Origin: Polyangiales bacterium
Lineage (GTDB): Bacteria; Myxococcota_A; Polyangia; Polyangiales; Ga0077539
Assembly: GCA_044229975.1 (NCBI GenBank)
Contig: JBGARZ010000030.1
Span: 1-53,373, forward strand
Direction of reading: 5' to 3'
DNA: 53,373 nt
Below the pieces are notes generated by a model. It had not been told where the DNA came from, ran no database searches, and worked only from the letters and a program-made list of their open reading frames with translations. A program made the translations under genes and the position numbers. The number at the start of each line of letters is the position of its first letter. Position 1 is the stretch's first letter. Positions 4,090 through 42,435 of the stretch are shown piece after piece.

Positions 4090-4110
4090 GACCCCTGGGG
4101 TTCAGGGGTC
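4090..4110. promoter_or_regulatory. Perfect 8-bp inverted repeat GACCCCTG-N5-CAGGGGTC
   Basis: Read directly: 4090-4097 and 4103-4110, in the gap between divergent genes, just before the 9-bp array. Confidence 0.45.
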
Positions 4111-4132
4111 GGCAGCGAGCCAGCGAATCAAC

Positions 4133-4240: not shown

Positions 4241-4459
4241 CACGGCCCAATGGGATCGACTTGGTAGGACACGATTGGAACGGAGTCGGCAGTCGTTCCG
4301 TGTCGCCCTGGCAAGAAAACTTCCCGTTGAACTCGACGCGCCATCTGTCGGTGATCTAGGGTTGAAAGCGTCCGGGGGAGATCCCTCGGATGACGCATCG
4401 ACCGTAGTGGGCAGTGGCCGGATCGATCGGCGTTTCCACACCCGAAAGTTGAGAGACAC

Positions 4460-11451: not shown

Positions 11452-11496
11452 GCATCGCGCACGGTGCCGCCACTCAACGCCGTCCACGGAGGATTC

Positions 11497-12024
11497 ATGA
11501 TTCGTCGAACATCAACTCTCGCGTCTCGCCGTCCCATCTCTGCGGCGCTGGTCACGCTGCTGCCGATCGCGCTGATCGTCGCGTTCACCGTCGGGCACCG
11601 CGACGCCGCAGCGCAGCCCGCGGCGAACTTCACCGGCGAACTCCATGGACTCGCCAACAAGTGTCTCGACGTCCGCGGTCCGAGCACCGACAACGGCACA
11701 CCGGTCCAGCTCTGGGACTGCGTCAACGTCCCGCAGCAGCGCTGGACCCTGACGCGTCGGGGTGAGTTGCGCGGGTTCGGCGGGAAGTGCCTCGACGTCC
11801 GTGGGCCAAGCACCGACAACGGCACGCCGGTCCAGCTCTGGGACTGTGTGGACGTCCCGCAGCAGCGCTGGACCCTGACGTCGCGGGGCGAACTGCGCGG
11901 CCTTGCCGGAAAGTGTCTCGATGTGCGCGGTCCCAGCTCGGCGAACGGGACGCCCGTACAGCTCTGGGACTGCGTGAACGTTCCGCAGCAGCGATGGGTG
12001 CTGTCTGGCCGCTCGGGCGGCTGA
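11497..12024 (+). CDS. Secreted ricin-B-type beta-trefoil lectin (175 aa)
   Basis: GGAGGA RBS before ATG; signal peptide ending AAA-Q; three KCLDV..VQLWDC..QQRW repeats. Confidence 0.92.
   Translation: MIRRTSTLASRRPISAALVTLLPIALIVAFTVGHRDAAAQPAANFTGELHGLANKCLDVRGPSTDNGTPVQLWDCVNVPQQRWTLTRRGELRGFGGKCLDVRGPSTDNGTPVQLWDCVDVPQQRWTLTSRGELRGLAGKCLDVRGPSSANGTPVQLWDCVNVPQQRWVLSGRSGG
11635..12012 (+). repeat. Three 126-bp tandem coding repeats of the lectin
   Basis: Units start at 11635, 11761 and 11887; 36/42 aa identical between units 1-2 and 34/42 between units 2-3. Confidence 0.9.
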
Positions 12025-12087
12025 TCCTGCCTCGCGGGCAGGTCGGCGCTTGCTCCCCACCTTCGCTCCGTCCGATGCTGCGCCGCG

Positions 12088-15000
12088 ATGATGGGGACCG
12101 ACGCCTCCGCACCCGTTCCTCCGCTCACTCCCCGCGCGCTGCCCGAGCGCGGGAGCTTCGTCCGCGTGCGCCAGCGGCGCTGGCTCGTCGAGCGGTGCGA
12201 CCCCTTCGACACGTTGACCTCCCTCGACCTCGCCTGCGTCGAGGACGATGCCCAGGGCGAGCGTCTGTCCGTCATCTGGGAGGCCGAGCCCGACGCGCGC
12301 ATCGTCCACGACGAGCGCACCGCTCGACCCGCTCGTAACCCTGATCCCCCTGAGCGATTCGCGGCCTACCTCCACGCTCTCCGCTGGAGCTGCGTGACGT
12401 CCACCGACCCGACGCTGTTCCAGGCGCCGCTGCGCGCGGGCATCATCCCAAAGACCTACCAGCTCGAACCGCTCCGCAAAGCCCTCGCCCTCCCGCGGGT
12501 CAACCTCTTCATCGCCGACGACGTGGGGCTCGGCAAGACCATCGAGGCCGGGCTCATCCTCCACGAACTCCTCCTGCGACAGCGCATCCACCGCGCGGTC
12601 ATCGCGGCGCCGCCGTCGGTGGTCCTCCAGTGGCGCGACGAGCTCCGCCAGCGCTTCGGCCTCGACTTCACCCTCTACGACCGGTCCTTCATCCTCGAGT
12701 GCCGACGCACCCGCGGCTTCGGCGTAAACCCTTGGAAGACGGGCTCGTTCTTCGTCGTCTCGCACGCCCTCCTGCGCGACGAGGAGCACCTCACCGGCCT
12801 GCGCGAATGGCTGGGCGACTTCGCCTCCGGCTCGATGCTCATCCTCGACGAGGCCCACGTCGCGGCGCCCGCGTCGGCCAGCCGCTACGCCGTCGACACC
12901 CAGATCACCCGCGCGGTGCGCGACCTCGCGCAGCGCTTCGAGCACCGGCTCTTCCTCTCCGCCACGCCGCACAACGGACACTCCAACAGCTTCTCGTCGC
13001 TCATGCACATCCTCGATCCGCAGCGCTTCACGCGCGGCATCGACATCAGCGGCCCGGCGCAGCTCGCGCCCGTGATGGTGCGCCGACTCAAGGCCGATGT
13101 GCGCAAGCACGCCACGGCCTCGCTCCCCGACCGCAAGCTCGTTGAGGTCTCCCTCGACGACACCGCTGACACCGCCCCCGAGCTACGCTTGGCGGCGCTG
13201 CTCGCGGCCTACGACGACGCGCTCGCGACCCGCACCGAGGGCGCCAACAAGAGCGTCCGCGCCCTGGTGCGCATCGCCGTTGAGGGGCTCCGCAAGCGGC
13301 TGCTGTCGTCGACCTACGCCTTCCAGCGCACCCTCCGCGAGCACCGGAAGAAAACCGCGAAGACCATCCTTGGTGCGCTCCCTCCCACGCCGTCCGACGA
13401 GGACGAGGCCTCGGAGCAGCAGGAACTCGCGCGCCTCGACGCCGAGACCGTACGCGCCGCGCGGGCCGTCGAGCCCTACACCGACGACGCGATCCGCGGG
13501 TTGCTCCAGGAGATGGCCGACGTCGCCGAAGAGGCCGCCGACCAGCCCGATGCGCGGGTGCGTGCCCTCGTCGCGTGGATCCGCGCGCACCAGTGCCCCA
13601 CGCTTGCGCCGCTCGGCACTGCGAATCCCGCGGGCGCCCCGTGGCTGCCGCGGCGCGTGTTGATCTTCACCGAGTTCGCGGACACCCGCGCGTGGCTCGT
13701 CGATCAGTTGCGCGCGGCCATCGACGGCACCGACCGCGACGACGATCGCGTTGGCAGCCTGCACGGGTCGCAGGACGACGACGACCGTGAGGCGGTGAAG
13801 CAGGCCTTCAACGCTTCGCCCGAACAGCACCCGCTGCGCATCCTCGTGGCGACGGACGCCGCGCGCGAGGGCATCAACCTCCAGGCCGCGTGCGCCGACC
13901 TCTTCCACTTCGACCTCCCCTGGAACCCCGCGCGGATCGAGCAGCGCAATGGGCGCATCGACCGCATGCTCCAGCCCGAGCGCGAGGTGCGGTGCCACTA
14001 CTTCCGCTACCGCAACCTCCCGGAGGACGCCGTGCTGGCGCGCCTCGCGACCAAGAGCCACGCCATCTCGGCCGAGCTGGGGAGCTTCGCGCCCGTGGTG
14101 TCCGACCGCATCCTCGCGGTGCTGGCCAAGGGGCTCTCGCGCCGGGAGCTTGCCCGGCGCATCGCGGAGATCGACGAAGCCGCTGAGGCCCCCGACGCCA
14201 CCCGTGCGGCGGTGACACGCGAACTCGACGACGCCCGCGAGAAGGACCTCTTGCAGAGCCTCGGCGTGCTCGCGAAGCTCTATGACAAGGCACGCGATCA
14301 CCTCGACTGCGATCCGCGGCGGCTGCGGCAGGTCGTGTCCGAGGGGCTGCGCCTCTGCGGCGGTGACGAGCTCCGCGCGCGCACTTCGCCGCCGCGTACC
14401 TACGACGTACCGCGCATGGACGAGCGCAACGCCAACGATCCGACCTGGCTTCGCGCGATGGATGCCCTCCGCTCGCCGCGACCGCCGAAGATGTCCGAGG
14501 GTGAGTGGCGGGCGCGCTTCCCCCCGCGTCCAGTGCGCCTCGAACCCGTCGACACCCTGGTGTCCGACGCGGTGCAACTGCACCTCCAGCACCCGCTCGC
14601 GCAGCGCGCGGTGAGTCCGTTCCGCTCGCAGGCATTCACCGAGGACGGCCTCGCGCGGGTGACCGTGGTGATCGACCGGTCGAGCGCGCGCAAGCGGGTG
14701 CTCGTACTCGGGCGCCTCGCGGTGTTCGGGTGGGGTGCCGCGCGGCTCCACGAGGAGATCCTCGGGCTGGCGGCCTACTGGTCCGAGGGGGACGACCCCA
14801 AGCGCCTCGAACCCTTCGTGACCGAGGACGCCAACGACAAGGCGCTCCAGGCATTCTTCCGCGTGCTCGACGAGCCCGAGGTGCCGACCCTCGATGACGA
14901 GCTCGTCGCACGCATCCTCCACAGGGCCGCGGGCGACCAGCGCGCGCTCGAAGGTCACCTCCGGCGCCGGGCGGTGGCGCGTACCGAGATCGCACGCACG

Positions 15001-15303
15001 AAGCTCCAGGTCCGCGGCGCGGCGGAGGCCGATGCCATGCGCGTCGTGCTCGAGACCCAGCGGGAGAGCATCCGCAAGGCCCTCGCGGGTACGCAGCTCG
15101 CGCTCGGACTCGGCGACGATCCCAGCCTCGACGAAGCCCAGAAGCAGCAGTGGAAGGACGACCGCGAGTTCCTGAAGCGGCGGCTCCCGCAGATTGACGA
15201 CGAGCTCGCCACCGAGCCAGAGCGCATCTGCGCGCTCTACGAGGACCGCCAATACCACGTCGAGATCGTGGGCATCGTCTACCTCTGGCCGGCGACCTCG
15301 TGA
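12088..15303 (+). CDS. drmD: DISARM SNF2-like helicase DrmD (1071 aa)
   Basis: LPRVNLFIADDVGLGKTIEAG, LDEAH, RLFLSATPHNGH, TDAAREGINLQ, WNPARIEQRNGRIDR; heads a drmMI/A/B/C cluster. Confidence 0.92.
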   Translation: MMGTDASAPVPPLTPRALPERGSFVRVRQRRWLVERCDPFDTLTSLDLACVEDDAQGERLSVIWEAEPDARIVHDERTARPARNPDPPERFAAYLHALRWSCVTSTDPTLFQAPLRAGIIPKTYQLEPLRKALALPRVNLFIADDVGLGKTIEAGLILHELLLRQRIHRAVIAAPPSVVLQWRDELRQRFGLDFTLYDRSFILECRRTRGFGVNPWKTGSFFVVSHALLRDEEHLTGLREWLGDFASGSMLILDEAHVAAPASASRYAVDTQITRAVRDLAQRFEHRLFLSATPHNGHSNSFSSLMHILDPQRFTRGIDISGPAQLAPVMVRRLKADVRKHATASLPDRKLVEVSLDDTADTAPELRLAALLAAYDDALATRTEGANKSVRALVRIAVEGLRKRLLSSTYAFQRTLREHRKKTAKTILGALPPTPSDEDEASEQQELARLDAETVRAARAVEPYTDDAIRGLLQEMADVAEEAADQPDARVRALVAWIRAHQCPTLAPLGTANPAGAPWLPRRVLIFTEFADTRAWLVDQLRAAIDGTDRDDDRVGSLHGSQDDDDREAVKQAFNASPEQHPLRILVATDAAREGINLQAACADLFHFDLPWNPARIEQRNGRIDRMLQPEREVRCHYFRYRNLPEDAVLARLATKSHAISAELGSFAPVVSDRILAVLAKGLSRRELARRIAEIDEAAEAPDATRAAVTRELDDAREKDLLQSLGVLAKLYDKARDHLDCDPRRLRQVVSEGLRLCGGDELRARTSPPRTYDVPRMDERNANDPTWLRAMDALRSPRPPKMSEGEWRARFPPRPVRLEPVDTLVSDAVQLHLQHPLAQRAVSPFRSQAFTEDGLARVTVVIDRSSARKRVLVLGRLAVFGWGAARLHEEILGLAAYWSEGDDPKRLEPFVTEDANDKALQAFFRVLDEPEVPTLDDELVARILHRAAGDQRALEGHLRRRAVARTEIARTKLQVRGAAEADAMRVVLETQRESIRKALAGTQLALGLGDDPSLDEAQKQQWKDDREFLKRRLPQIDDELATEPERICALYEDRQYHVEIVGIVYLWPATS

Positions 15304-15343
15304 GCGCCACCGTGTTTCCCTTCGCCCCCGATCAGAGCCCCCG

Positions 15344-18300
15344 ATGACCCTCGACCCTCGCGTTCGCGCCCACCAGGACTGGCTCGGCATGGTGCAGCCC
15401 ACCGGGTTGTTCCTCGCGCCGCGCGTGCTCGCCGACGCCGGCGCTGCGCCGACCGACCCCATCATCGACGTCCAGGCGATTGTCGCCGAGGCCGTCACCG
15501 ACGGCGCCCTGCGCGACCCGCTGGGTGCCTTTCGCGACGTGTTCGCGTGGCCCGACGCGGTGCTTCTCCAGGGGGACACCCTCCCGGCCGACGTCGCGCT
15601 CTCCCTCGACGGGGGCGTGCGCGTCGTGCCCGACTTCGCGCTGCGCGACCTAGACGAGCCCGTCCATGTACTCCTCGGCATGATCGTCGCGCCCGACGTC
15701 GTGCTCGACGCTGCCTCCGACGACCAGGCGTGGACCGCCTCGGCGCACCACCGCTTCGAGCGTCTCCTGCGAGCGCGGGAGTGTCCCGTGGGTGTGCTCA
15801 CCAACCATCGCTCCGTCCGCGTCGTGTACGCTCCGAAGGGCGAGGCCACCGCTCACGCCACGTGGAGCGTGGGCGACCTGCTCACCGTCGCCGGGCGCCC
15901 GCTGCTCGCGGCGCTGCACATGTGCCTCAACGCGCGGCGGATCCTCACGCTCGATGGCGACCAGCGACTCCCGGCGCTGCTCGCCCGCAGCCGGGAGTTT
16001 CAGAACACCGTCAGCACCAGGCTTCAGGGCCAGGTGCTCGACGCGCTACAGGAGCTGCTCGACGGCCTCCAGCGGGCCGACCGCGTGACCGACGGGCGCC
16101 TCCTCGCGCCGTGGCGCGCCAACGATGACGATCGCCAGGGCATCTACCGCGGCCTCGTCACGGCCCTCCTGCGCATGGTGTTCGTGCTCTTCGCGGAGGA
16201 GCGCCGGCTGCTCCCGCTCGACGCGAAGCGCTATCGCGAGAGCTACGCGCTCACCAACCTTCACACCCGGTTGCAGGACGATCACGCCCGCCTCGGCGCC
16301 CGCCTCGACGCCCGCTACGGAGCGTGGGCGCGGGTCGTGGCGCTGTTCCGACTGCTGCACGACGGACTCGACGCGCGGGCCATCCCCGACGGGTTCTCGA
16401 TTCCGCCGCGGCGCGGGGAGTTCTTCGACCCCGACCGCTTCGCCTTCCTCGAAGGGCGGGCGCTTGGGCCGCGCGCGCCGGGCCCGCTGGAGCTGCCGAA
16501 GATCTCCGACGGGACGGTCTTCCGCGCGCTCGACAAGCTGCTCGTGCTGGACGGCGAGCGCCTGAAGTATAGCGACCTCGCCGTCGAGCAGATCGGGTCG
16601 GTCTACGAGGGGATCATGGGCTACACCCTCGAGCTCGCTGAGGGCCGCGCGCTGCGCATCCGCGTGGGGAGCGCCCTCGACGTGGTGGTCGACCTCCAGC
16701 GCTTCGCCGACCTCGCGCGCAGGGACTTCGTCAAGCACCTCGCCGACGACCTCGGGCTCAAGCTCTCCGACGGCACCGCGAAGGCCGTCGAGAAGGCCGT
16801 GCGCGAGGACGACGTCGCCGCCGCACTCTCGCAGCAGAAGGCCTTCAAGCACCTCACGGCCATTGAGCGCGGGTGGATGTTCCTCCAGCCAGGCGAGGAG
16901 CGCCGCCGCTCGGGCTCGCACTACACCCCGCGCTCGCTCACGCAACCCATCGTCGAGCGCACCCTCGCGCCGGTGCTCGCAGCCATGGGAGAGCACCCAA
17001 CGCCCGAGGCCATCCTCGCGCTGCGGGTGTGCGACCCGGCGATGGGGTCGGGGGCGTTCCTCGTGGAGGTGTGCCGCCAGCTCGCCACGCGGCTCGAAGC
17101 GGCGTGGAAGCACCACGACGCGATGCCGACGATTCCGCCCGACGAAGACCCACACCTGCACGCGCGCCGCCGCGTCGCCCAGCGCTGCATTTACGGCGTC
17201 GATCGCAACCCCCTCGCGGTCGACCTCGCGCGGCTCTCGCTCTGGCTGGAGACCTTCGCGCGCGACCACGCGTTCACCTTCGTCGACCACTGCCTGCGCC
17301 ACGGCGACTCGCTCGTGGGCTTGTCGCTCGACCAGATCGCCAGCGTGTCGCTCGACACCCGCAAGGGCGCGCAGCTCGACCTCGTACGCAAGACCGTCAA
17401 CGAGACGCTCGCCCGGGTGCGCGCGCTCCGCCGGGAGATCCACGTGGCGGGCGACGGCGACCCGCCCGACAACGACGGGCAACGCTCGCTCTGGCGCGAG
17501 GCGCAGGACGCGCTGCTCGAAGCGCGCACCGTGGGAGATCTCGTCGTCGCGGGGTTCTTCTCGCAGAAGACCGACAAAGACCGGGCGAAGTGGGTCGCGG
17601 GACAGCACGCGGCGATCACGGAGTGGCTCACGAAGAAGGGGACGGGCGAGGCGCTGCGGGGCGAGGTGCGGCGGGTGCTCGGCGCGAGGGGGATCGTGCC
17701 GTTCCACTGGCCGCTGGAGTTTCCCGAAGTGTTCGAGGGCGCGAACGGCGGCTTCGATGCGTTCGTGGGCAATCCGCCATTCATCGGCGGCGGGAGAATC
17801 TCAGGGATGCTTGGCGCGGCCTACCTTGACTGGATCAAGCAGCTTCACGAGGAGAGTCACGGCAACGCCGACCTCGTCGTGCATTTCTTCCGTCGCGCGT
17901 TCGACTACCTCCGTGACGGAGGCACGTTCGGCCTGATCGCAACGAACACCATCGCCCAAGGTGACACGCGCAACTCCGGTCTCCGTTGGATCTGCACGCA
18001 TGGAGGCACGATCTACGAAGCTCGCCGACGCTATAGATGGCCTGGTATCGCGGCCGTCGTGGTGAGTGTCGTCCACATCGTGCGCGGTGCTTTGGTGCAA
18101 TCCCGAATTCTCGACGGACGTGAGGTTGCCGCGATTACGGCGTTCCTCTTCCACCGCGGCGGACACGAGAGTCCTGCAACGTTGAGCGAGAACGATGGCA
18201 GATCCTTTGGCGGCTCAAAGGTTTATGGGCAAGGCTTCACCTTCGACGATCGCGAGAAGAAACGCGACACCGTGAACAGCCTCGCCGAGATGCGCTCGCT

Positions 18301-19270
18301 GATCGAAAAGGACTCACGGAATCAGGAGCGAATCTTCCCCTACCTCGGAGGGGAGGAGCTCAACGACGACCCCGCGCAGAAGCCCCATCGCTACGTGATC
18401 AACTTCGGTGAGGTGAGCGAGGCCGAGGCGCGCGAATGGCCCGACTTGATGGCGGTCGTCGAGTCGAAGGTGAAGCCAGAGCGACTGAAACAGAACCGCG
18501 AGATCCGCGCACGATACTGGTGGCGCTTTGGCGAAACTACGCCAGCTCTTTTTCGTGCGATCCAAGGCAAATCACGCGTGCTGGCGAATTCGATCGTGAG
18601 CGGTCATCTCTCCTTCGCATGGTTGCCGACAGGAATCGTCTACTCACACAAACTTGCGGTGTTTCCTGACGATCGCGATGCATTCTTCGCCGTGATGCAG
18701 TGTCGTGTTCACGAAGCGTGGGCGCGGTTCTTCTCGTCCTCGATGAAGGACGACCTGAATTACTCGCCATCGGACTGCTTCGAGACCTTCCCCTTCCCGC
18801 GGGGGTGGGAGGAGAGCACTGCGCTGGAGGACATCGGGCGGCGCTACGAGGCGCACCGGGCAGCGGTGATGAAGCGCACGATCGAAACGAAGAAGCCCGA
18901 GGGACTGACGGCGACGTACAACCGCTTCCACGACCCCAACGAGCGCGGCGCCGAGATCGCGACGCTGCGCGCGCTCCACGCGGAGATGGACCGCGCGGTA
19001 CTCGACGTCTACGGCTGGACGGACCTGCAGCCGGCGTACGACTACCGGGTGCAGCTCGACGAGCGGGTGCGCTACACGTGGGACGACGACACGCGCGATG
19101 AGGTACTCGCGCGGTTGCTGGAAGAGAACCGGCAGCGTGCGCGGGCGAACGAGGCGGCGCCGCAGGTCAGGGCGGCAGTCGACGAGGAGGCGGCCGCGGC
19201 ACCGGCGAAGCGGGGACGGAAGAAGAAGGGCGACGAGGCGAGGGAGCCGGGGTTGCCTGGGGTGGAGTGA
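15344..19270 (+). CDS. drmMI: DISARM N6-adenine DNA methyltransferase DrmMI (type IIG/Eco57I-like, ~1308 aa)
   Basis: GSHYTP, CDPAMGSGAF (motif I), GNPPF (motif IV), C-terminal CFETFPFP..GLTATYNRFH..LHAEMDRAVLDVYGW; follows drmD. Confidence 0.9.
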   Translation: MTLDPRVRAHQDWLGMVQPTGLFLAPRVLADAGAAPTDPIIDVQAIVAEAVTDGALRDPLGAFRDVFAWPDAVLLQGDTLPADVALSLDGGVRVVPDFALRDLDEPVHVLLGMIVAPDVVLDAASDDQAWTASAHHRFERLLRARECPVGVLTNHRSVRVVYAPKGEATAHATWSVGDLLTVAGRPLLAALHMCLNARRILTLDGDQRLPALLARSREFQNTVSTRLQGQVLDALQELLDGLQRADRVTDGRLLAPWRANDDDRQGIYRGLVTALLRMVFVLFAEERRLLPLDAKRYRESYALTNLHTRLQDDHARLGARLDARYGAWARVVALFRLLHDGLDARAIPDGFSIPPRRGEFFDPDRFAFLEGRALGPRAPGPLELPKISDGTVFRALDKLLVLDGERLKYSDLAVEQIGSVYEGIMGYTLELAEGRALRIRVGSALDVVVDLQRFADLARRDFVKHLADDLGLKLSDGTAKAVEKAVREDDVAAALSQQKAFKHLTAIERGWMFLQPGEERRRSGSHYTPRSLTQPIVERTLAPVLAAMGEHPTPEAILALRVCDPAMGSGAFLVEVCRQLATRLEAAWKHHDAMPTIPPDEDPHLHARRRVAQRCIYGVDRNPLAVDLARLSLWLETFARDHAFTFVDHCLRHGDSLVGLSLDQIASVSLDTRKGAQLDLVRKTVNETLARVRALRREIHVAGDGDPPDNDGQRSLWREAQDALLEARTVGDLVVAGFFSQKTDKDRAKWVAGQHAAITEWLTKKGTGEALRGEVRRVLGARGIVPFHWPLEFPEVFEGANGGFDAFVGNPPFIGGGRISGMLGAAYLDWIKQLHEESHGNADLVVHFFRRAFDYLRDGGTFGLIATNTIAQGDTRNSGLRWICTHGGTIYEARRRYRWPGIAAVVVSVVHIVRGALVQSRILDGREVAAITAFLFHRGGHESPATLSENDGRSFGGSKVYGQGFTFDDREKKRDTVNSLAEMRSLIEKDSRNQERIFPYLGGEELNDDPAQKPHRYVINFGEVSEAEAREWPDLMAVVESKVKPERLKQNREIRARYWWRFGETTPALFRAIQGKSRVLANSIVSGHLSFAWLPTGIVYSHKLAVFPDDRDAFFAVMQCRVHEAWARFFSSSMKDDLNYSPSDCFETFPFPRGWEESTALEDIGRRYEAHRAAVMKRTIETKKPEGLTATYNRFHDPNERGAEIATLRALHAEMDRAVLDVYGWTDLQPAYDYRVQLDERVRYTWDDDTRDEVLARLLEENRQRARANEAAPQVRAAVDEEAAAAPAKRGRKKKGDEAREPGLPGVE

Positions 19271-20574
19271 TGGCGATCGAACCGGTGTTCGGTTGGGTGG
19301 CGACGGATGCAGCGGCTGTCGCGTCCATCCGCAAGGCGCTCGAGTCGACGGAGCAGGGCGTCGTCGATGAGCTCGGCGTGGGCGTGCTCCACACCGGCTA
19401 CGCAGACCGCTTCTTCCCCGGTACGTCGGTGTTGCTCACGCGGGCGAGGTACGCCTTCTTCGTGCCCTGGACCTTTCTGATCCTCGCAGAAGCGCGGGTG
19501 AACCGCGATCGGTTCCCCACCCGCAAGCTCCAGCTCGAACTTCGACTGACCGAGCGCTTGAGAGCGATCTACGAGAACGCGACGGGCGCGGAGGGAAACG
19601 GGATCATTGGCGTGCGGGTGTATCCCGAGCCTCCTGCCCAACCCCCCGATTTCGCGTGGTGGTCGGCGCTTGACGCCTGGGGGATGTACCGGGGCCGGTC
19701 GCGAGCCGGACTGCTGAGCCGCTGGGACCCAAAGGGCGTGCGCCGCGCGGCGGACCTGCGACCGCTGCGCGAGGAGGAGATCGAGGAAGACCATCTCGCT
19801 TCGTTCTCTGTGCCTCCTCCGCCCAGGGATTGGCCCGACGGGATGACGGACGGGTTCGACCTGTCCGCGCCTGAGGCTGAGTGGCTACGAGCGCGGTGGG
19901 AGAGACTCCCCAAGCCATCGCTCCTTGGCGCGTGCGCCTCGCTCATGAAGCAGTCCCGACGCCCGAAGCGCCGGCAGCTTTGGGACGATCCCCTGGTGCG
20001 AGACGCCGCGACGCTCGCCGACGCGGATCCGCGCCCGAAGCCCCTTGGGTTCGTGAGAGCGATCGAGCATGCGAGGCGTGCGTCGGCAGCGGCGGAGATC
20101 GTGCGCGCGACCTATGGCGCCTTCGTCGAGGTCGAGTGGGAGCGGGACCAGCGCCACAACTCCACGGATCAACCGGAGCCGCTCGGCCACATCGAGCACC
20201 TCGGAACCTGCTGGGAAGATCCGCAGGGTCTGCGCGACCTGTTGTTGGAGCTCAACGTCGATGACCTCCTCGTGGACATTCCCGAGATGCGTCGAGGCCG
20301 TCGGCGGGTCGACGAACTCCTGCGAGAGTTTCAACGGGCCTGGCGCGCGGCGCGATCGGCGGAGGACATTCTGGGTGACCGCAGACTCCGGAGCGTCTGC
20401 GAACAGGTCGAGCTCAGCCGGAAGGGATCGCGAGCGCAGTTGCCCCGGGTCTCAGGTCGCGCGCGCCGGGCAGTCGCCGGCGGGTCGATTGGAGCGGTCA
20501 CGGGCATCGATTTCCGGTGGGCGGTGACCCGTCGACTCCTGACCGACGTATGCGACGGCCTTGCCCGTGGCTGA
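19270..20574 (+). CDS. DUF6361-like protein (434 aa), first gene of the embedded trio
   Basis: GVVDELGVG..ADRFFPGTS..TRARY..FVPW N-terminal signature; TGATG overlap with the drmMI stop. Confidence 0.75.
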   Translation: MAIEPVFGWVATDAAAVASIRKALESTEQGVVDELGVGVLHTGYADRFFPGTSVLLTRARYAFFVPWTFLILAEARVNRDRFPTRKLQLELRLTERLRAIYENATGAEGNGIIGVRVYPEPPAQPPDFAWWSALDAWGMYRGRSRAGLLSRWDPKGVRRAADLRPLREEEIEEDHLASFSVPPPPRDWPDGMTDGFDLSAPEAEWLRARWERLPKPSLLGACASLMKQSRRPKRRQLWDDPLVRDAATLADADPRPKPLGFVRAIEHARRASAAAEIVRATYGAFVEVEWERDQRHNSTDQPEPLGHIEHLGTCWEDPQGLRDLLLELNVDDLLVDIPEMRRGRRRVDELLREFQRAWRAARSAEDILGDRRLRSVCEQVELSRKGSRAQLPRVSGRARRAVAGGSIGAVTGIDFRWAVTRRLLTDVCDGLARG

Positions 20575-25400: not shown

Positions 25401-25608
25401 GCTGATTCTCACCTCCTTCTCCGATCAGCGGGAGCGTTGTCGGCGCCTCCAGAACGAGCTCGACCTGTATCGACTCGCCATGGGCCAGCCCGACCAGGAG
25501 GAACTCCTCGCACGACTTGAACAACGTCTGATCGGCGCGGATCCCGAGACACGCCAGGAGGTTCGCGTGTGGCTGCGGAGCGCCACGATCGACCTGCGAC
25601 CTCGGTGA
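22456..25608 (+). CDS. SF2 helicase (1050 aa), third gene of the embedded Azaca-like trio
   Basis: LVADEVGLGKT, IVFDEFQRF, MLSATPY, AFNSPFRPMVLITTSVGQEGLDFH, WDLPGNPVDLEQRDGR; start ATG overlaps the PLD stop. Confidence 0.88.
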   Translation: MRTAFQSATVRWATERLIDPRGTGRVLVADEVGLGKTFVAQGVIDELSQRHKGPDPFRVFYVCSSLSIATQNEERIRDVLPKGERESARVEGTSRLSMMLEAEIPSPAARFLLYTLTPNTSFRQGTGLADERLKLARCVWAQFGYTALDWFHDAFQVGVGSIRWRHLWDDMAIPSWFTVALSKRFESNVRVGFPRGTTFGTDALAERVKRALQDGARCREAVASLRAALILTVVDQLRPDLIVFDEFQRFFEVLPVDAEPDEAAREHDDDNEQAREVVAALLRQSACVGERARVLMLSATPYRMYARAQETQQHHEEFYALVRFLFAERGVETTQVLRAEFARYRELLERELVGSPAVLRVKRTIEKLLGTVMARTERAGLLGGRHSPSNIEACPVKLGPDEVKVFRHLIESCGGRHRGAAEAFWSSVPLPLQMMRAKDYAFRRAAEPARVPRDGSVPSLGTASLRSYRAFENRSYPHARLRGLLHVLPAEILELPWLPPSLPWWPLEAPFLPPEAHGRWSKALVFSRFRAVPRSLATLLSYEAERGAIEPSMRRRGRRRFDWSSRGTHEVRAGEPRNRPPTLRPLPSPSFATAHGRGWCTPIVMFLPWPTLANVVDPLALAVRCRGKLTRDAALAAARSRLVALLGRDPDRRTHVPVWKWIVRLERRLGGDDGRDLERALCKWRELGASSALFELTDDEASNPTDGELDELADIAVSGPGPMLWRVVRRVFGPGGESIEERDERMVAVLAAANALRGYLDVPEWHVSFVEHLGRAGRLAEGVRMAAWRGNLEAVLDEFLATEQGMGTTRPNTEREAASLKSLRNVLALRETRLEVERVGGVGRPLRLRCHAAVAYGLGSSGEEPDAPRADQVRAAFNSPFRPMVLITTSVGQEGLDFHRWSRHLIHWDLPGNPVDLEQRDGRLRRHGGLAVRSALGERVQVHEIDPERSPWHVVSERHPPSPEGLGLEPWWHCDGATVRRTLILTSFSDQRERCRRLQNELDLYRLAMGQPDQEELLARLEQRLIGADPETRQEVRVWLRSATIDLRPR

Positions 25609-25700
25609 AACAGCGTCTGCGCTGCGACGTTGGGCGCGTACTGTTGGACCCCGCTTCGGCCGCTGTGCGACTACCTGTGCAGTTCCCTCAGGAGCCTTCC

Positions 25701-26951
25701 ATGCCCAACGATTCAGGTCCTCCGTTCGGTCCCATCGAGCTTGATCTCGCGGTCCTGGACGTCGTCAGCCGGATTCACCATCTCGTGCAGACAGCCCGCC
25801 GTCACCCGGATCTACCCGCCGAGGCGGGAGTCAACCTCACCCTCGATGAGTACGAACACCTCCTCGAACTCGCGAGCGGCTCGTCCGACCTCGTCGCCCG
25901 CTCGAACCTCACGACCGGTGACAGCGAGCGCGAGTGCCGAGACGCGCTGGAGACGTTTCGCAACAAGGTGCTCGAAGATCTCGGCGCCCGCGAAGACCTC
26001 GACTACGACACCATGTGCGAGGTGCTCACGAACCTGAAGGAGCGGAGTGACTGGTACGAGCCCTTCGCCCCGCCGACCGTGGGCAAGGCCCTGGTACGCG
26101 CGTGGATCCGCTCCGGCGGTGACCTCACGACCAACGGGCATTGGCACGACGGCGTCTCATGGAGCGCCGTCCCCGAGGGAGAGGGCCGGCAGGTGCTCGA
26201 TGCTGCGGTCGATACCTGCGTGCTCGCGGCGCAGATGAACGATGAGTTGCGACACGGGCTCCGGTTCTGGGTCGAGACCGTGGCACCCGAGGTGATCGGT
26301 GATGCAGCGGAGCGGCTGGAGTGGATGGCGGTGCGCGTCGCGCGTCGATCGAACGAAGGGATGCTTCACGCGAGCAGGGAGTTTCTCCGCGAAGCGACGT
26401 GGGACTGGTACGGCGAGGTCGAGCCGAACGATGTGGCAGGGGCGGTGCGAGCGCTTCGTGCGCTTGAGACGATCGCGCGCTCGAACGTCGACCCGAGCGG
26501 GGAGATGTACGAGGGGCTCCCCGAGGCGTGGGAGAACTTCCCCTGGGCCGATGCACCCGTCGAGGCGTTGGACGCGGTGATGGCCGAGGCGGTGGCCATG
26601 GCGGTCGGCGATGCCGCCAAGGGCAAGGGGCACGGTGACGAACTCGTCCGCTGGGTTGGTGTGGTGGCGCCGAAGAGGTTCCCCGACCTGGCGGAGCGGT
26701 TGCTGTGGTTCGCGGCCTCCGTGGGCAAGCTCGCTGGCGATGCTCCCCCGTTCTCATCGTCGCTCAACGAGACGCTCACTGAGCTGGTGTGCGACTGGCT
26801 CCAAGAGTTGGAGAAGGGATCGATTGAGGACATCGCCGTCGTGCTGCGCTCCTTCCGACGAACGCCGATGGCGGCCTGCTTGTGGAAGCAGAGCCTGGAG
26901 GAGAGCCTCGACGCGCTCGCCGAAGCATTGAAGTCAGGCGATGGCGACTGA
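25701..26951 (+). CDS. Hypothetical acidic helical protein (416 aa), paralog of 849..2405
   Basis: AGGAG RBS before ATG; high-GC3 codon usage; collinear similarity to the 0.8-2.4 kb ORF. Confidence 0.75.
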   Translation: MPNDSGPPFGPIELDLAVLDVVSRIHHLVQTARRHPDLPAEAGVNLTLDEYEHLLELASGSSDLVARSNLTTGDSERECRDALETFRNKVLEDLGAREDLDYDTMCEVLTNLKERSDWYEPFAPPTVGKALVRAWIRSGGDLTTNGHWHDGVSWSAVPEGEGRQVLDAAVDTCVLAAQMNDELRHGLRFWVETVAPEVIGDAAERLEWMAVRVARRSNEGMLHASREFLREATWDWYGEVEPNDVAGAVRALRALETIARSNVDPSGEMYEGLPEAWENFPWADAPVEALDAVMAEAVAMAVGDAAKGKGHGDELVRWVGVVAPKRFPDLAERLLWFAASVGKLAGDAPPFSSSLNETLTELVCDWLQELEKGSIEDIAVVLRSFRRTPMAACLWKQSLEESLDALAEALKSGDGD

Positions 26952-27062
26952 TGGTATCGACGGGTGCCATCGGGTGGTGACGACCGGGCCGTGACGTAAT
27001 CCGTCACAGCTCTGGGAGAAGGCCGACCTTCTCATAGCCCGTGCGGTACCGTGCGGCCCCAC

Positions 27063-30000
27063 ATGCACGCTGCGCCCGTCCGCGACCGGTTGATCCACGC
27101 GCTCCGCCTCGACCTCGTTGGCCCAGACCCGCTCGACCCGCGCGACGTCTCGCTCGCGGCCGAGGTGCTGGAGGTGCCACCGACGCACTGGTACCTCACG
27201 GGGTTCCTGGTGCCTTCTGGTGTCGTGCCCGAGCTCTTCGAGGACCCGACCGCCACCGAGGAGGTCACCTCCGGCGCGAGCGGTTCCGAGGAGGGCGAGG
27301 ACGACGACGGCCCCGCGCGGCGTCCGGTCTTCCCGTCGTCGCTCGGGGTGACGGTGCTCGTGCCCGCCGAGGCGACGACGCTGCACGTCACCGCGCGCTG
27401 GGCGACGTACACACCCGAGGCCGCAGCGCCGAAGCCCGCGGGCGCAACCGAGCCCGTCGAGCGAGGCGGCCTCCCGACGCTGCGATGGACGCGCGAGCCC
27501 TACGAGACGGAGGTCTCGCTCGCCCTCAACGCCGCGGCGCTGCGCAAGGGCGCGGTGCTCCCCGGCTCCGGTGGCGTGATGGTGCGCGGCGTCCTGCGTC
27601 CGCTGCGCGACGACGAGCGCGCGCAGATCCCGGCCAAGACCTGCGTCGTCACGATCTTCCTCGTCAACCAGCGCCCGCCCATCGAGGCCGGGCCCGACCA
27701 GGACCGCGCGGTGATCTTCCAGACCGAGCTCGCGGTGCATTGCAGCGAGGGTTTCGTCCCGCGGCCCAACCGCCGCGGCGCCCACCTCGACGACGACCTC
27801 GACGAGCGCATGGGCGACCTCCAGTACCGCGACGCCTTCGAGTACGCGGTGGGCCACGGTGTGTCGGTGCGCTCCACGGTCCAAGGCACCGGGCCCGACG
27901 TGTTCTGCGACACCGTGCGCACCACGTGGACCCCGTCGGCGCAGGTCGAGCGTGTGATCCCCTCCGAGGTGCTCGGCTGTGAGCTGCGTATGGACGCGCT
28001 CGCCGCGATGGACAGCCCCGCGACGCTCCGCGCGGAGGTCGCCCCGATGGTCCGCCACTACCGCGACTGGATCGCCCAGCAGGGCCAGACCGTGCTCGAC
28101 ACGCCCGCGCGCGGCGACCTCTCGCGCTTTCTGCTGGAGGAGGCCTCCCGCGCCTGCGACCGCATCGAAGCCGGACTCGCGCACACCGAAGACCCGCAGG
28201 TGTTCGATGCCTTTCGCCGCGCCAACCGGGCGATGGCCGACGCCGCGCGGCAGCGCAGCCCACACCGCTACCTCGCGAAGCAGCAGGGCGGCGAAGGAAA
28301 GGTGCCGACCTGGCGACCGTTCCAACTGGCGTTCGTGCTGATGAACGTCGCTGCGCAGGCCGAGCCCACCCACGCCGAGCGCGACGTGGTCGACCTCATC
28401 TTCTTCCCCACGGGCGGCGGCAAGACCGAGGCGTACCTCGGCCTCGCGGCCTTCACGCTCGTGCTGCGGCGTCTGCGCAACCCGGGCGTCGGATCAGCGG
28501 GCGTGGCGGTGCTCATGCGCTACACGCTGCGACTGCTTACGCTCGACCAGCTCGGCCGCGCGGCGACGCTGGTCTGCGCGCTTGAGCTGCAACGGCGCGA
28601 GAGCGAGGCGCTCCTCGGGCCGCAGCGCTTCTCCATCGGGCTGTGGGTCGGCAAGGCCGTGACGCCGCTCCGCTTCGGCACCGACAAGGACCACGACGAC
28701 AGCACCGCCCGCGAGCGCGTGCTTGCGTACAACCGCAACCCCGACGGCGCCCCGAGCCCGCTCCCGCTCGACAAGTGCCCCTGGTGCCGCGAGCCCTTCG
28801 GGCAGGACACCTTCCATCTCGCGCCCAGCATCGCGGCGCCGCGGCAGATGCGCGTGCGGTGTCACGCGCCCGCGTGCGACTTCCGTTGGTCGCGACAGTG
28901 GCACGAGGGGCTCCCGATCGTGACCGTCGACGAGGAGGTTTACCGCGAGCTGCCGTGCTTCCTCATCGCGACGGTCGACAAGTTCGCTGCGCTCCCGTGG
29001 GTCGGTCGCACGGGGCTCCTCCTCGGCCGCAACGCCACGCACCGCCTCCCCGACGGCTTCGCCGGCCCGGCCGATCCGCCCGACGGCGCCACGCCGCTCG
29101 TGACGCCACTGCTGCCACCCGACCTGATCATCCAGGACGAGCTCCACCTGATCAGCGGCCCGCTCGGGACGATGGTGGGGCTCTACGAGACGGCCCTCGA
29201 CGCCCTCTCGACTCGCATCGTTGATGGGAAGGTCGTGCGCCCCAAGATCGTCGCGTCGACCGCCACGGTGCGCAATGCGCAGGCCCAGGTGCGCGCGCTG
29301 TTCGCGCGGAGCGACGTGCGGGTGTTCCCGCCGCCGGGGCCCAACCGGTCGACGTCGTTCTTCGCCGAGACCTTGCCGCTCAAGCATACGAAGCTCGGGC
29401 ACCCGCGCACCTACGTCGGCATCTCTGCGCCCGGGCGGAGCATGAAGGTGCTGCTCCTGCGCTCGTACGTGGCGCTGCTAGGCGCCGCGCAGCGGGCCTA
29501 CGAGGACGACCCCGCGTCGAGCGATCCGTACATGACCCTGGTGGGCTACTTCAACAGCCTGCGCGAGCTCGGGGGCGCCCGGCGGATCGTCGAGGACGAG
29601 GTGCGCAGCAAGGTCGCGCGTGCCGACCGCCGGCGCCGCGCGGTGGGCCGCTCGGGGGACGAGGAGCTCGCCTCGCGCGTGATCTCCTTCGACTGCGTCG
29701 AGCTCACGAGCCGCGAGAGCACGGAGATGATCAAGATCGCCAAGGAACGCCTCGAGATCGCCTTCGGAGCGAAGCCCACGGCCTCGGCGAAGGCAGCGTC
29801 GCCCGCGAAGGGGGCGAAGGCCGCGAAGCAACGGTCGCCAGTCGACGTGGCGCTCGCGAGCAACATGATCTCGGTGGGCCTCGACATCGAGCGTCTCGGG
29901 CTGATGGTGGTGTGCGGACAGCCGAAAACGGCGGCGGAGTACATCCAGGCGTCGAGCCGCGTGGGCCGCGCGGCCGACCGGCCGGGGCTCGTTGTGACGC

Positions 30001-30596
30001 TGCTCAACGCCCACCGTCCGCGTGATCGTTCGCACCTCGAACACTTCGAGGCCTTCCACCAGGCGTTCTATCGAGCGGTAGAGGCGACCAGCGTGACGCC
30101 GTTTTCTCCGCGCGCGATCGACCGCGGACTGCCGGCGGTGGCCGTCGCGCTCGCTCGACTCTCGGAGCCAGGGCTCACAGCTCCCGACGGCGCCGCCGCG
30201 CTCGCGTCGGTGAAGACGCGCGTCACCGAATATGTGGCGGACACGCTCGTGCGCCGCGCCGAGGCACACCGAAAGGGAGCCCCCGCGGACGAGTCGCTGG
30301 AGGAGCTGTCGCAGGGACTTCGCGCACGCGTCGCAACGCTCTTCGACGCGTGGGCGCACGTCATCGACGATGACCCCGGCTCCAAGGGTCTCGCCTACCA
30401 GAAGTACGAGGACCCCGGTGGGGGGAGGCCGCTGCTGCACATGCCGCTCGACGAGGACCTCGCCGAGGCGAACCGGTACGAGCGGCGGTTTGTCGCCGCG
30501 CGCTCGATGCGCGACGTGGAGGCGTCGACCGACCTGATGGTGATGACCCGCAAGGGCGCCGGGGCCGTGGTCGCCGACGAGGAGGAGGGGCGATGA
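27063..30596 (+). CDS. drmA: DISARM helicase DrmA (~1177 aa)
   Basis: LRLDLVGP..WYLTGFL, EYAVGHG, WRPFQLAF, FPTGGGKTEAYLGL, MRYTLRLLTLDQ, IIQDELHLISGPLG, QASSRVGR. Confidence 0.93.
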   Translation: MHAAPVRDRLIHALRLDLVGPDPLDPRDVSLAAEVLEVPPTHWYLTGFLVPSGVVPELFEDPTATEEVTSGASGSEEGEDDDGPARRPVFPSSLGVTVLVPAEATTLHVTARWATYTPEAAAPKPAGATEPVERGGLPTLRWTREPYETEVSLALNAAALRKGAVLPGSGGVMVRGVLRPLRDDERAQIPAKTCVVTIFLVNQRPPIEAGPDQDRAVIFQTELAVHCSEGFVPRPNRRGAHLDDDLDERMGDLQYRDAFEYAVGHGVSVRSTVQGTGPDVFCDTVRTTWTPSAQVERVIPSEVLGCELRMDALAAMDSPATLRAEVAPMVRHYRDWIAQQGQTVLDTPARGDLSRFLLEEASRACDRIEAGLAHTEDPQVFDAFRRANRAMADAARQRSPHRYLAKQQGGEGKVPTWRPFQLAFVLMNVAAQAEPTHAERDVVDLIFFPTGGGKTEAYLGLAAFTLVLRRLRNPGVGSAGVAVLMRYTLRLLTLDQLGRAATLVCALELQRRESEALLGPQRFSIGLWVGKAVTPLRFGTDKDHDDSTARERVLAYNRNPDGAPSPLPLDKCPWCREPFGQDTFHLAPSIAAPRQMRVRCHAPACDFRWSRQWHEGLPIVTVDEEVYRELPCFLIATVDKFAALPWVGRTGLLLGRNATHRLPDGFAGPADPPDGATPLVTPLLPPDLIIQDELHLISGPLGTMVGLYETALDALSTRIVDGKVVRPKIVASTATVRNAQAQVRALFARSDVRVFPPPGPNRSTSFFAETLPLKHTKLGHPRTYVGISAPGRSMKVLLLRSYVALLGAAQRAYEDDPASSDPYMTLVGYFNSLRELGGARRIVEDEVRSKVARADRRRRAVGRSGDEELASRVISFDCVELTSRESTEMIKIAKERLEIAFGAKPTASAKAASPAKGAKAAKQRSPVDVALASNMISVGLDIERLGLMVVCGQPKTAAEYIQASSRVGRAADRPGLVVTLLNAHRPRDRSHLEHFEAFHQAFYRAVEATSVTPFSPRAIDRGLPAVAVALARLSEPGLTAPDGAAALASVKTRVTEYVADTLVRRAEAHRKGAPADESLEELSQGLRARVATLFDAWAHVIDDDPGSKGLAYQKYEDPGGGRPLLHMPLDEDLAEANRYERRFVAARSMRDVEASTDLMVMTRKGAGAVVADEEEGR

Positions 30597-32482
30597 GCCG
30601 CAGCGATCGTTGGAAGGCGGGCGTTCCCTTCGGCCAGCGGGCCCATGGGTCGATCCGACAGAGTCAGCTGGTGGGGATGTTCGGCCCCGGCGCGCTGGTC
30701 GACCTGATCGACGAGGCCGTGGTGGTGGCCGGCCTCTCGTGGTGGGCCAAGGGCACGCCCGTCCACGAGGAGCGCCTCGTGTCGATGCTCGCGCGCCAGG
30801 AGGGCTTCGGCAACGTGACGCTCCACGCGCCCCCGGCCGCCTCGCAGGATCGCGAGGATCCCAACCGCCGATGGATCAAGGCGTTCCAGTTTCCCGAGTG
30901 GTTCACCTGCCAGAGTGAGAGCTGCTGGGTCGACTTCGGGCGCGAGCCGCGGCGCGATGGCGGACGCCCGCGACGGCTGCTGCATGCGAGCGATCTCGAC
31001 TCGGGCGGTCACCGCTGCGAGGGCAAGGGGAAGAAGCGACCGAGTCCGGTGCAGCCGATCCGCTTCGTGCGCGCGTGTCGCTTCGGCCACCTCGACGACC
31101 TCGACTGGAAGGAACTCGTCCACGGCAAGGGCGGGACGTGCGCGAAGGCGCGACCGATGTACTGGATCGACGAAGCCGGCACCTCGGGCGACCTCGCCGA
31201 CGTGCGGGTGAGCTGCGACTGCGGGAAGAGCCTGCGCATGTCGGTGGCCGCCGAGCGTTCGTTCGACGACCCGCCGGTCGGGTGGTGCCAGGGCAAGCGC
31301 CCCTGGCTGGGTGACGTGCCGCGAGAGGACTGCCCCGGCGAGCCGATGAAGCTCCTCCTCCGTTCGGCGAGCCACGCGTACTTCCCGCAGGTGGTGAGCG
31401 TGATCCATGTGCCCGAGAAGTCGGCGCGCCTGCGCGACGCCGTGGGGCGCCTCTGGGACAAGCTCAAGGGGGCCAAGAAGGTCTCGAGCGTGGCGTTCTA
31501 CCGAGACGAGCAGGAGGACGTTGCCGAGGCCCTGCAAGGCATCACCGACGCCGAGGTGTTCGCGGAGATCGAGCGTCGTCGCAACGGCGCCCCGGTGGCG
31601 GGCAAGAAGCTCAAGGACGCCGAGGTCGAGGTGATGCTCGACTGCCCGCCGGAGCTCGCGAAGGACGACCCCTCGGGGAGCTTCTACGCGCGCACGGCGA
31701 AGCCCTGCTCGACGCGCGACCGCTCGCCGATGACGAAGATCGACAAGGTGGTGCTGGTGCACCGGCTCACGGAGGTGCGTGCGCTCGCAGGCTTCACGCG
31801 CTTCGAGCCCAAGATGACGGACGTCGACGGCGAGCTCGACCTCGGCGTCGGCACCGCGCGCATCGACCAGCCGCTGACGTGGCTCCCGGCGATCGAGAAC
31901 CACGGCGAGGGCGTGTTCTTCTCCCTCAAGGAGTCGCTGCTCACGAAGTGGGAGAGCACCCGCGCGGAAGCGCGCGGGAAGCAGTTCCGTACCGGCTTCA
32001 ACCGCTGGAAGCAGCGGCGCGCCGACCGGGCCGATGCGCGCGATGAGTTCGCGCGGCCGCGCTACGTGTTGATGCACTCCCTCGCACACCTGCTCATCAC
32101 GGCGGTGTCGCTGGAGTGCGGTTACCCCGCGAGCGCGATCCGCGAGCGGGTCTATGCGGGCTCGGCGGGCTCCGGGGTGTTGCTGTACACCGCGGCGCCG
32201 GGAGCGAGCGGATCGCTCGGCGGCCTGGTGCAGGTGGGTCGTGACTTCGAGCGCTTCCTCGATCTCGCGCTCAACCTCGCGAGGCTCTGCTCCAACGACC
32301 CTGTGTGCGCGGGACACTCGCCCGACGACGCGCACGATGACCGGCACCTGGAGGGCGCCTCCTGCCACGGTTGCCTGCTCATCTCGGAGCCCAGCTGCGA
32401 GCGGATGAACAGCTACCTCGATCGCACCCTGGTGGTGCCCACCGTCGAGGACGGGGACGCCGCGTTCTTCGACGAAGGGTGA
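30593..32482 (+). CDS. drmB: DISARM DrmB, DUF1998 (MrfA-like Zn-binding) protein (629 aa)
   Basis: IRQSQLVGMFGPGALVDL, HSLAHLLI..LECGYPASAIRER, CSNDPVC..GASCHGCLLISEPSCE; ATGA overlap with drmA. Confidence 0.93.
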   Translation: MSRSDRWKAGVPFGQRAHGSIRQSQLVGMFGPGALVDLIDEAVVVAGLSWWAKGTPVHEERLVSMLARQEGFGNVTLHAPPAASQDREDPNRRWIKAFQFPEWFTCQSESCWVDFGREPRRDGGRPRRLLHASDLDSGGHRCEGKGKKRPSPVQPIRFVRACRFGHLDDLDWKELVHGKGGTCAKARPMYWIDEAGTSGDLADVRVSCDCGKSLRMSVAAERSFDDPPVGWCQGKRPWLGDVPREDCPGEPMKLLLRSASHAYFPQVVSVIHVPEKSARLRDAVGRLWDKLKGAKKVSSVAFYRDEQEDVAEALQGITDAEVFAEIERRRNGAPVAGKKLKDAEVEVMLDCPPELAKDDPSGSFYARTAKPCSTRDRSPMTKIDKVVLVHRLTEVRALAGFTRFEPKMTDVDGELDLGVGTARIDQPLTWLPAIENHGEGVFFSLKESLLTKWESTRAEARGKQFRTGFNRWKQRRADRADARDEFARPRYVLMHSLAHLLITAVSLECGYPASAIRERVYAGSAGSGVLLYTAAPGASGSLGGLVQVGRDFERFLDLALNLARLCSNDPVCAGHSPDDAHDDRHLEGASCHGCLLISEPSCERMNSYLDRTLVVPTVEDGDAAFFDEG

Positions 32483-32485
32483 GCG

Positions 32486-33274
32486 ATGGACGACTGGGCC
32501 TCGGACGCGAACCCCGCCGACCTCGACCTGCTGGCCCGCGCGCTCGACGACGGGAGGCTATCCGCGCGTGGCGACTCCGCGGCGGCCGTGCAGGCCCTGG
32601 GGCTCGCTGAAGGGGCGAGGGTGCGGGCCTTCCTCGCGTCGGTGCCCGTGCGCGACCCGAAGGCCCTCGCGTGGTGCCTGCGACGCCTCGCTGCGGAGCG
32701 ACGCGCGTCGTCCGATCGCCTCGCGTGCAGCGCGCAACTGGTGTGGAGCGGTCAGGGCGACGGGCACCAGCCGCTGCGCGACACGCGGGCGGTGCTCGAC
32801 GAGGTGTGCGCTCGCGCCGAGCAGCACGTGATGCTCGCGACGTTCGTCGTGTACGACGGGCGGCGCAGCCTCGCGGCCCTCGCCCGGCGCATGCGCGAAG
32901 TGCCTTCGCTGCAGGTGGACTGCTACGTCGACCTGAAGGCCGCGCGGCACCAGGCGTCCGACGAGGCGCGCGACGTTGACGCGTGGGTGCGGCGCTTCCG
33001 CGAGGAGCACTGGCCCGACGATGTTCGCCTGCCCGCGATCTGGTACGACCCGGCGACGCTCGACCGGTCGGCGGGCACGTCGCTCCACGCGAAGTGCGTC
33101 GTGGTCGATGGCCGGTGGTCGTTCGTCACGTCGGCGAACTTCACTGAGGCCGCGCAGGAGCGGAACATCGAGGTGGGTGTGGTGCTCGACCACCCTGCGC
33201 TTGCCCAGGCCCTTAGGGCCCAGTTCCAGGGGCTGCGAGAGCGCGGTGGGTTTCGACGGATGGCGGGGACGTAG
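32486..33274 (+). CDS. drmC: DISARM phospholipase D-like nuclease DrmC (262 aa)
   Basis: LVWSG, SLHAKCVVVD (HKD), TSANFTEAAQERNIEVG; directly after drmB. Confidence 0.92.
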   Translation: MDDWASDANPADLDLLARALDDGRLSARGDSAAAVQALGLAEGARVRAFLASVPVRDPKALAWCLRRLAAERRASSDRLACSAQLVWSGQGDGHQPLRDTRAVLDEVCARAEQHVMLATFVVYDGRRSLAALARRMREVPSLQVDCYVDLKAARHQASDEARDVDAWVRRFREEHWPDDVRLPAIWYDPATLDRSAGTSLHAKCVVVDGRWSFVTSANFTEAAQERNIEVGVVLDHPALAQALRAQFQGLRERGGFRRMAGT

Positions 33275-42434: not shown

Positions 42435-42435
42435 G

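Follow-up and report, generated by a model that had tools for sequence, protein, structure and literature searches.

What occupies the middle of an interrupted DISARM locus, and does it belong to DISARM? The canonical class 1 order is drmD-drmMI-drmA-drmB-drmC, and in the Polyangiales stretch analysed here about 7.8 kb and four genes separate drmMI from drmA. This stretch, which we call the window, is the entire 53-kb contig C12 of genome G000 (10 Mb, 71% GC), likely that of a myxobacterium to judge by a Sorangium relative and an MXAN_6577-like protein. An earlier note, made from the sequence, had described a second defence module embedded in DISARM at a cargo hotspot and probably sharing its transcript. 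We find that the interruption most probably consists of a complete Azaca system and one unrelated gene, lodged in a variable slot of an intact class 1 DISARM, and that Azaca is likely there as a self-contained second defence and not as a DISARM subunit.

Two defence systems at one locus

All five class 1 DISARM genes are intact, in canonical order and on the same strand, and profile cut-offs are passed wherever such cut-offs exist:

12088..15303, + strand: drmD, SNF2-like helicase of class 1 DISARM (NF038317, 973 bits, cut-off 610; Walker A, DEAH and motif VI intact)
15344..19270, + strand: drmMI, N6-adenine DNA methyltransferase (PADLOC DrmMI, 1252 bits; Pfam Eco57I and MmeI_TRD; S-adenosylmethionine-binding and NPPF motifs)
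27063..30596, + strand: drmA, helicase (NF038325, 1122.6 bits, cut-off 950; motifs intact)
30593..32482, + strand: drmB, DUF1998/MZB zinc-binding partner (NF038324, 525.5 bits, cut-off 240; cysteines present)
32486..33274, + strand: drmC, phospholipase D (PLD)-like protein (NF038319, 154.8 bits, cut-off 133; HKD motif at 201)

The start codon of drmMI is inferred, its frame opening at 15194; Walker A/B and motif VI are kept in both DrmD and DrmA. The five genes and their order are those of class 1 DISARM, from which the locus differs by its 7.8-kb cargo split, by having no drmMII that we could see and by a predicted internal promoter before drmA. By gene calls, drmMI stops at 19270 and drmA opens with an ATG at 27063; the interval of 7,792 bp contains four genes, in agreement with the earlier note, and all nine genes lie on the + strand in open frames. 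The four inserted genes are:

19270..20574, + strand: zacA (DUF6361), Azaca subunit (PADLOC ZacA, E 4.9e-76, model positions 4-395 of 396; PF19888)
20567..22459, + strand: zacB, two-lobed PLD-family nuclease of Azaca (PADLOC ZacB, E 3.2e-91, model positions 8-579 of 586)
22456..25608, + strand: zacC, superfamily 2 (SF2) helicase/ATPase of Azaca (PADLOC ZacC, E 2.1e-224, model positions 14-1016 of 1019; Walker A, DEFQ, SAT and motif VI)
25701..26951, + strand: orf4, 416-aa protein predicted to be all-helical (alpha-solenoid), of a small family (predicted model with a local confidence score, pLDDT, of 78)

Judged by profile matches, the first three genes are the already known Azaca system (PADLOC PDLC03828-03830), complete and in the order zacA-zacB-zacC, with which they share gene number, order, full-length matches and the PLD and helicase motifs. 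The embedded second defence module is thus real as such, and it is not new, having a name already. The name was reportedly given by Millman et al. in 2022, the word "Azaca" being absent from the text of the preprint. The window copy differs from other Azaca in belonging to a divergent clade and in lying inside DISARM, a DISARM core accompanying 0 of 79 GTDB Azaca loci among the matches listed; its closest titled relative among those matches is from Sorangium (ZacC 44%).

The chaining by overlaps described earlier holds for the trio: zacA overlaps the drmMI stop by 1 nt (TGATG), zacA and zacB overlap by 8 nt, and zacB and zacC by 4 nt (ATGA). The unchained orf4 has gaps of 92 nt before and 111 nt after it and its own AGGAG ribosome site. 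Three SF2 helicases (DrmD, ZacC and DrmA) and two PLD proteins (ZacB and DrmC) are indeed encoded at the locus, with their motifs present. The zacB gene begins with GTG, the same start that is used in the relative G149, and two HxK motifs (H117-K119 and H327-K329) and GSAN are invariant in all five aligned ZacB; the window ZacB lacks the Asp of HxK(x4)D, as do the other aligned ZacB.

The fourth gene, orf4, is separate cargo and unrelated to Azaca. It has no Pfam, PADLOC or NCBIfam match, and its relatives come to 31 among 1.84 billion representatives, two of them full-length at 40-44%, with four paralogues in the same genome and one further match in a word-indexed search. A fold search gave no specific match, the best being a designed repeat protein (Z 13.1 at a root-mean-square deviation of 7.4), followed by generic HEAT-like solenoids; a single-sequence model (pLDDT 55) had no Foldseek match at E ≤0.001 in PDB, and orf4 had none at that threshold among viral structures and none in the ESM Atlas. 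Family members lie in the window at 849-2492 (− strand) and at L003, L004, L005 and L271:8903-9637; members of the family are found 10 kb ahead of drmD, 5 kb ahead of the genome's second drmA, about 6 kb from a methylase-like gene (C24) and convergent with drmC (G145). This small helical-repeat family, recurring near defence or mobile DNA, is possibly defence-related.

An assembly chimera at the junctions would have undone the embedding. The left junction is real: drmMI/zacA is bridged by metagenome contigs from two studies, one covering 19114-19409 with 0 differences and one covering 19222-19637 with 17, the latter from a related strain, and the zacB/zacC junction and the end of zacC are likewise bridged by metagenome pieces. 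For orf4/drmA no bridging piece was found among the matches listed, and support on this side is indirect: in the relative G149 a drmA of 85% identity follows zacABC at a distance of 1.5 kb. Parts of the window stretch also occur in bioreactor and activated-sludge metagenome runs. The window contains no tRNA.

A variable slot between drmMI and drmA

Comparison with close relatives delimits the insertion sharply, DNA identity returning 21 bp before drmA, and a second variable part lies within drmMI:

19271..27041, + strand: variable cargo slot (blastn identity stops at 19270 for G145 and G161 and returns at 27042 for G145, G161 and G149)
17981..18943, + strand: target-recognition segment of drmMI, which recombination has likely exchanged (GC content at third codon positions, GC3, 0.75 against 0.91-0.92 in the flanks; identity to G161 falls from about 0.86 to 0.70-0.75)

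The GC3 of the four inserted genes is 0.78-0.83 as compared to 0.87-0.91 for the DISARM genes, and in the same-genus G145 (DrmA identity 95%) the slot contains roughly 1 kb of different DNA. Surveying the order, we found a DrmA match in 75 of 201 genomes and examined 60 drmA loci, 40 of which have drmMI at most 19 kb upstream; the 20 dropped either ended too soon (11), lacked drmMI in the full 19 kb (8, perhaps with another gene order) or gave no match (1). Cargo of at least 1.3 kb fills 34 of the 40 junctions, reaching at least 5 kb in 21, while five junctions have at most 54 bp and one has about 1 kb. At L038 an apparent gap of 245 bp was a frame artefact, DNA alignment giving about 1.0 kb. 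Scanning 96 of the 165 junction open reading frames (ORFs), namely the longer, co-oriented ones, revealed Septu-like, Iet, Thoeris, GmrSD-like, PD-T7-3, kinase and PDC genes, together with many ORFs without a match. The junction is therefore the cargo hotspot that had been proposed, as its varied contents in related loci attest.

Cargo exchange would proceed by homologous recombination in the conserved flanking genes, drmMI and drmA, and would involve no integrase: extra drmMI 3' pieces lie within four junctions (L039, L076, L086 and G365), and a repeat search of the slot gave just short, chance-like repeats, with no att-like, long terminal or flanking repeats. The G365 locus (L188/L268) preserves a legible series of cargo captures and possibly carries two methylase specificities. 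Elsewhere in the window, positions 1439-5586 match the start of contig C31 at 83% identity. That contig likewise leads into DISARM, suggesting related mobile islands; an IS66 transposase gene (6284-7816, − strand) follows this segment.

Azaca itself recurs in this slot. ZacB and ZacA matches occur in 20 and 21, respectively, of 401 genomes of the order (both tallies include G387), and besides the window an Azaca or Azaca-like trio occupies the slot in three genomes. In G365 it is a true Azaca (E 2e-59, 4.5e-77 and 2.5e-190) in the order drmD-drmMI-zacABC-drmMI piece-ietAS-second full drmMI-drmABC; in G191 the trio is only distantly Azaca-like and its helicase has 690 aa; and in G149 zacABC (51-59%) is followed by a TacAT-like pair in the place of orf4 and by drmA (85%), the drmMI side lying off the contig. 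In G000, G191 and G365 drmMI is directly followed by the trio; in G149 the trio lies shortly upstream of drmA. A one-clade origin of the slot trios is rejected on the ZacB tree by the approximately unbiased (AU) test (p 0.0006), the tree, built from 42 of 84 rows (every order-level or close row and one in three of the rest) by a quick search under LG+G4, having two long branches. On this phylogenetic evidence Azaca has been captured into the slot at least twice, and probably three times.

These captures do not amount to a dedicated DISARM-Azaca subtype, which fits neither the AU result nor the linkage in just three of the seven other genomes with both systems. Azaca occurs in only 2 of the 41 other junctions of the first 200 genomes; in G249 one trio is convergent with drmC and another lies elsewhere, and G355, G047 and G064 keep Azaca and DISARM apart. 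With G157, G004, G300 and G237 dropped as unassessable, Azaca is in the slot in 3 of 7 genomes as compared to 1 of 25 for the control cargo IetA (p 0.025, or 0.088 without G149, which is kin of the window), a comparison that was set post hoc, includes non-independent kin and some IetA genomes without an assessable junction, and is a hint only. ThsA is in the slot in the one genome that has both it and DISARM.

Beyond the order, the full trio is present in 68 of 79 GTDB and 42 of 74 metagenome Azaca loci among the matches listed, and DrmA, DrmB or DrmC was found near Azaca in none of either set (44 and 14 loci having adequate flanks), a result that, for the GTDB set, is weak against coupling: of 50 of its genomes tested, just 4 gave any DrmA-like match, and each of these fell below the cut-off. 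Because full trios occur without DrmA, DrmB or DrmC in the flanks examined, Azaca appears to need no DISARM, most of its loci elsewhere standing alone. The distant trio with a short SNF2-type helicase, as in G191 (L070), recurs in G249 (L277) and G355 (L278), with a ZacA E of just 6e-11, and is possibly an unnamed subtype. At L029 (G109), L097, L121 and L152, Azaca adjoins an SNF2 helicase and a large methylase, with no drmA, drmB or drmC in the DNA examined.

Promoters and the one-operon question

Two promoters are predicted at the locus:

12050..12079, + strand: predicted promoter of drmD-drmMI-zacABC (TTG-type -35, 18 nt, GAnnnT -10, 8 nt before the ATG; arrangement kept in G161)
27047..27052, + strand: TACCGT, predicted -10 of a near-leaderless internal promoter for drmABC (TAnnnT, 8-10 nt ahead of the drmA start)

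In all six loci with a DrmA at least about 70% identical (window included), the drmA ATG is preceded at 8-10 nt by the hexamer TACC(G/C)T and lacks a Shine-Dalgarno sequence, and the conserved block before drmA starts just upstream of this hexamer. Of 4,630 long ORFs in G000, 9.1% have TAnnnT at 6-11 nt upstream of their first ATG, as compared to 1.0-1.1% in control windows (ninefold), with a T-rich signal 23-24 nt further upstream, as expected for a sigma-70 promoter. Given the conserved element before drmA and the genome-wide enrichment at that spacing, drmABC likely has its own near-leaderless promoter, a claim we limit to the window's clade; the genome-wide figure also points to many leaderless or near-leaderless transcripts in the G000 lineage.

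A separate drmABC promoter would explain why the slot tolerates inserts, being a concrete reason for the cargo tolerance of this junction, and it bears on the proposed shared transcript, of which one half holds up better than the other. Transcription of the trio with drmMI is plausible in view of the TGATG overlap, and zacABC would be read from the drmD promoter with translational coupling to drmMI; a single operon running on through drmA is doubtful, since drmABC would use its own promoter and inserts would leave the DISARM core unsilenced.

Other signals told us less. GAnnnT gave no clear genome-wide peak as a promoter signal, and only TAnnnT was used; a consensus scan of 11000-30900 was uninformative, with 0 promoters and 8 terminator-like sites as compared to 7.2 by chance. 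Across the order TAnnnT fails to separate the junctions (0 of the 5 gap-free ones and about 8 of the others have it). The sequencing runs listed for the window stretch include no RNA runs, and the literature matches listed included nothing relevant on leaderless promoters in Myxococcota.

Autonomous pair or partnership

How might two such systems serve one cell? Class 1 DISARM protection is reported to be raised by unmethylated cognate sites, with drmC dispensable (bioRxiv 10.1101/2021.12.28.474362), and DrmAB is described as being in an autoinhibited state that is relieved by binding to unmodified 5'-overhang DNA (bioRxiv 10.1101/2021.12.26.474123). Azaca is reported to protect strongly against T4, and ZacA, ZacB and ZacC, all required and jointly sufficient, cut T4 DNA in vitro, which requires the nuclease and Walker A residues (bioRxiv 10.1101/2025.07.10.664194). 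By analogy with these homologues, DrmMI would methylate self DNA and DrmAB would load on unmethylated DNA with 5' overhangs, while in a ZacABC complex the ATPase activity of ZacC would license DNA cutting by ZacB, with hypermodified T4-like DNA preferred. The pair would then act on modified as well as unmodified invaders, much like BREX with its embedded BrxU. That precedent, as described, likewise joins a methylation-based host system to an embedded nuclease, whose presumed target is modified DNA; it differs in that three proteins make up the embedded part here, a PLD-helicase complex, and we infer complementarity for this locus. Two autonomous systems make the simplest model, and the nested Azaca is likely a swappable add-on covering chemically modified phage DNA rather than a new machine.

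Several observations weigh against this account. The preference for modified DNA was shown for other Azaca, and the window Zac proteins share only about 25-33% identity with the two aligned Azaca copies, which are distant and score as canonical; glucosyl-hydroxymethylcytosine itself was proposed only as a possible cue (bioRxiv 10.1101/2025.07.10.664194). Both promoters are predictions from sequence, the drmA element of the window has no clear -35, and the six loci sharing it are kin, TAnnnT standing at just 14 of 60 drmA starts. Azaca is also commoner in the slot than IetA, an excess that a purely passive slot does not predict.

This excess would be natural if DISARM and Azaca formed a selected partnership, in which, for example, DrmAB unwinds or holds invader DNA and ZacB is the nuclease replacing DrmC, itself dispensable, or in which Azaca is a safeguard against evasion of DISARM. 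The recurrence of trios beside drmMI in three genomes and beside drmA in G149, the rejection of a single origin and the slot linkage of Azaca fit such cooperation, and the discussion of the DrmAB work proposed that DrmAB may recruit other PLD nucleases (bioRxiv 10.1101/2021.12.26.474123). We nonetheless regard it as rather unlikely: the linkage weakens once G149 is excluded and leaves out four unassessable genomes, ThsA too is in the slot in the one genome with both it and DISARM, the systems are apart or merely adjacent in 4 of 7 genomes with both (G249, G355, G047 and G064), few other junctions hold Azaca, and ZacB is reported to require ZacA and ZacC in vitro. A bolder version, to which we give slightly more room while still thinking it unlikely, would make class 1 DISARM two separately promoted halves with a recombination-fed slot, Azaca having been captured at least three times in the order since the systems work as a pair, DISARM against unmodified and Azaca against hypermodified DNA, and ZacB perhaps cutting DrmAB-loaded DNA. 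If ZacB did act for DrmAB, this would bear on which nuclease DISARM uses, DrmC being dispensable.

The opposite extreme, a genomic sink that tolerates inserts and in which Azaca is carried along through linkage without complementing DISARM in any particular way, overlaps our preferred reading of two autonomous systems save on complementary targets. The highly varied cargo, many genes of which have no defence match, suits a sink, a hypothesis named by Payne et al. (bioRxiv 10.1101/2024.01.29.577857). It seems improbable to us, however, in that the Azaca motifs are all intact, and close TGATG coupling together with recurrent capture is suggestive of selection for expression. Least credible by far, and largely refuted, is that the four inserted genes form one new system or an assembly chimera. 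Although orf4 is co-oriented and similar in GC3 (0.83), a four-gene module is contradicted by the absence of orf4 matches from all 79 GTDB Azaca loci among the matches listed and by the other genes in its place in G149, and orf4 paralogues occur without Azaca; against a chimera, for which the unbridged orf4/drmA junction might speak, stands the doubly bridged left one.

Both systems, and embedding in DISARM as such, are known already, and the locus itself is ordinary. Payne et al. reported that DISARM often carries embedded, co-oriented defence genes ("guilt-by-embedding"), which the present arrangement resembles; their main text names Azaca and the drmMI-drmA junction 0 times, and the supplements may list the pairing (bioRxiv 10.1101/2024.01.29.577857). 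The literature matches listed include no account of Azaca inside DISARM, the 13 papers among them that contain both words mentioning Azaca once or twice. What is added here are the Azaca or Azaca-like trios in the slot of three other genomes, not forming one clade, and the conserved TAnnnT before drmA. The locus thereby offers a natural test pair for whether systems against unmodified and modified DNA are kept together by selection.

Further defence or defence-like genes lie elsewhere in the genome. G000 has a second class 1 DISARM (C31:5549-23239, L282) in the order drmA-B-C-D-[4 kb]-drmMI, and its 4-kb gap holds a complete PDC-M55ABC module (an ABC ATPase, an unknown and a GmrSD_N protein); both DISARMs of this genome thus carry an embedded module with a possible link to modified DNA. 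Downstream in the window lie a PD-(D/E)XK nuclease gene (39846-40856), a DUF2357/PDDEXK_7 gene with a PDC-M26A-like partner (40884-45468, − strand), and genes for an AAA ATPase (45486-46919), a SIR2-like protein (47014-48591) and a CARF/ring-nuclease-like protein (48416-49729), all of them defence-like.

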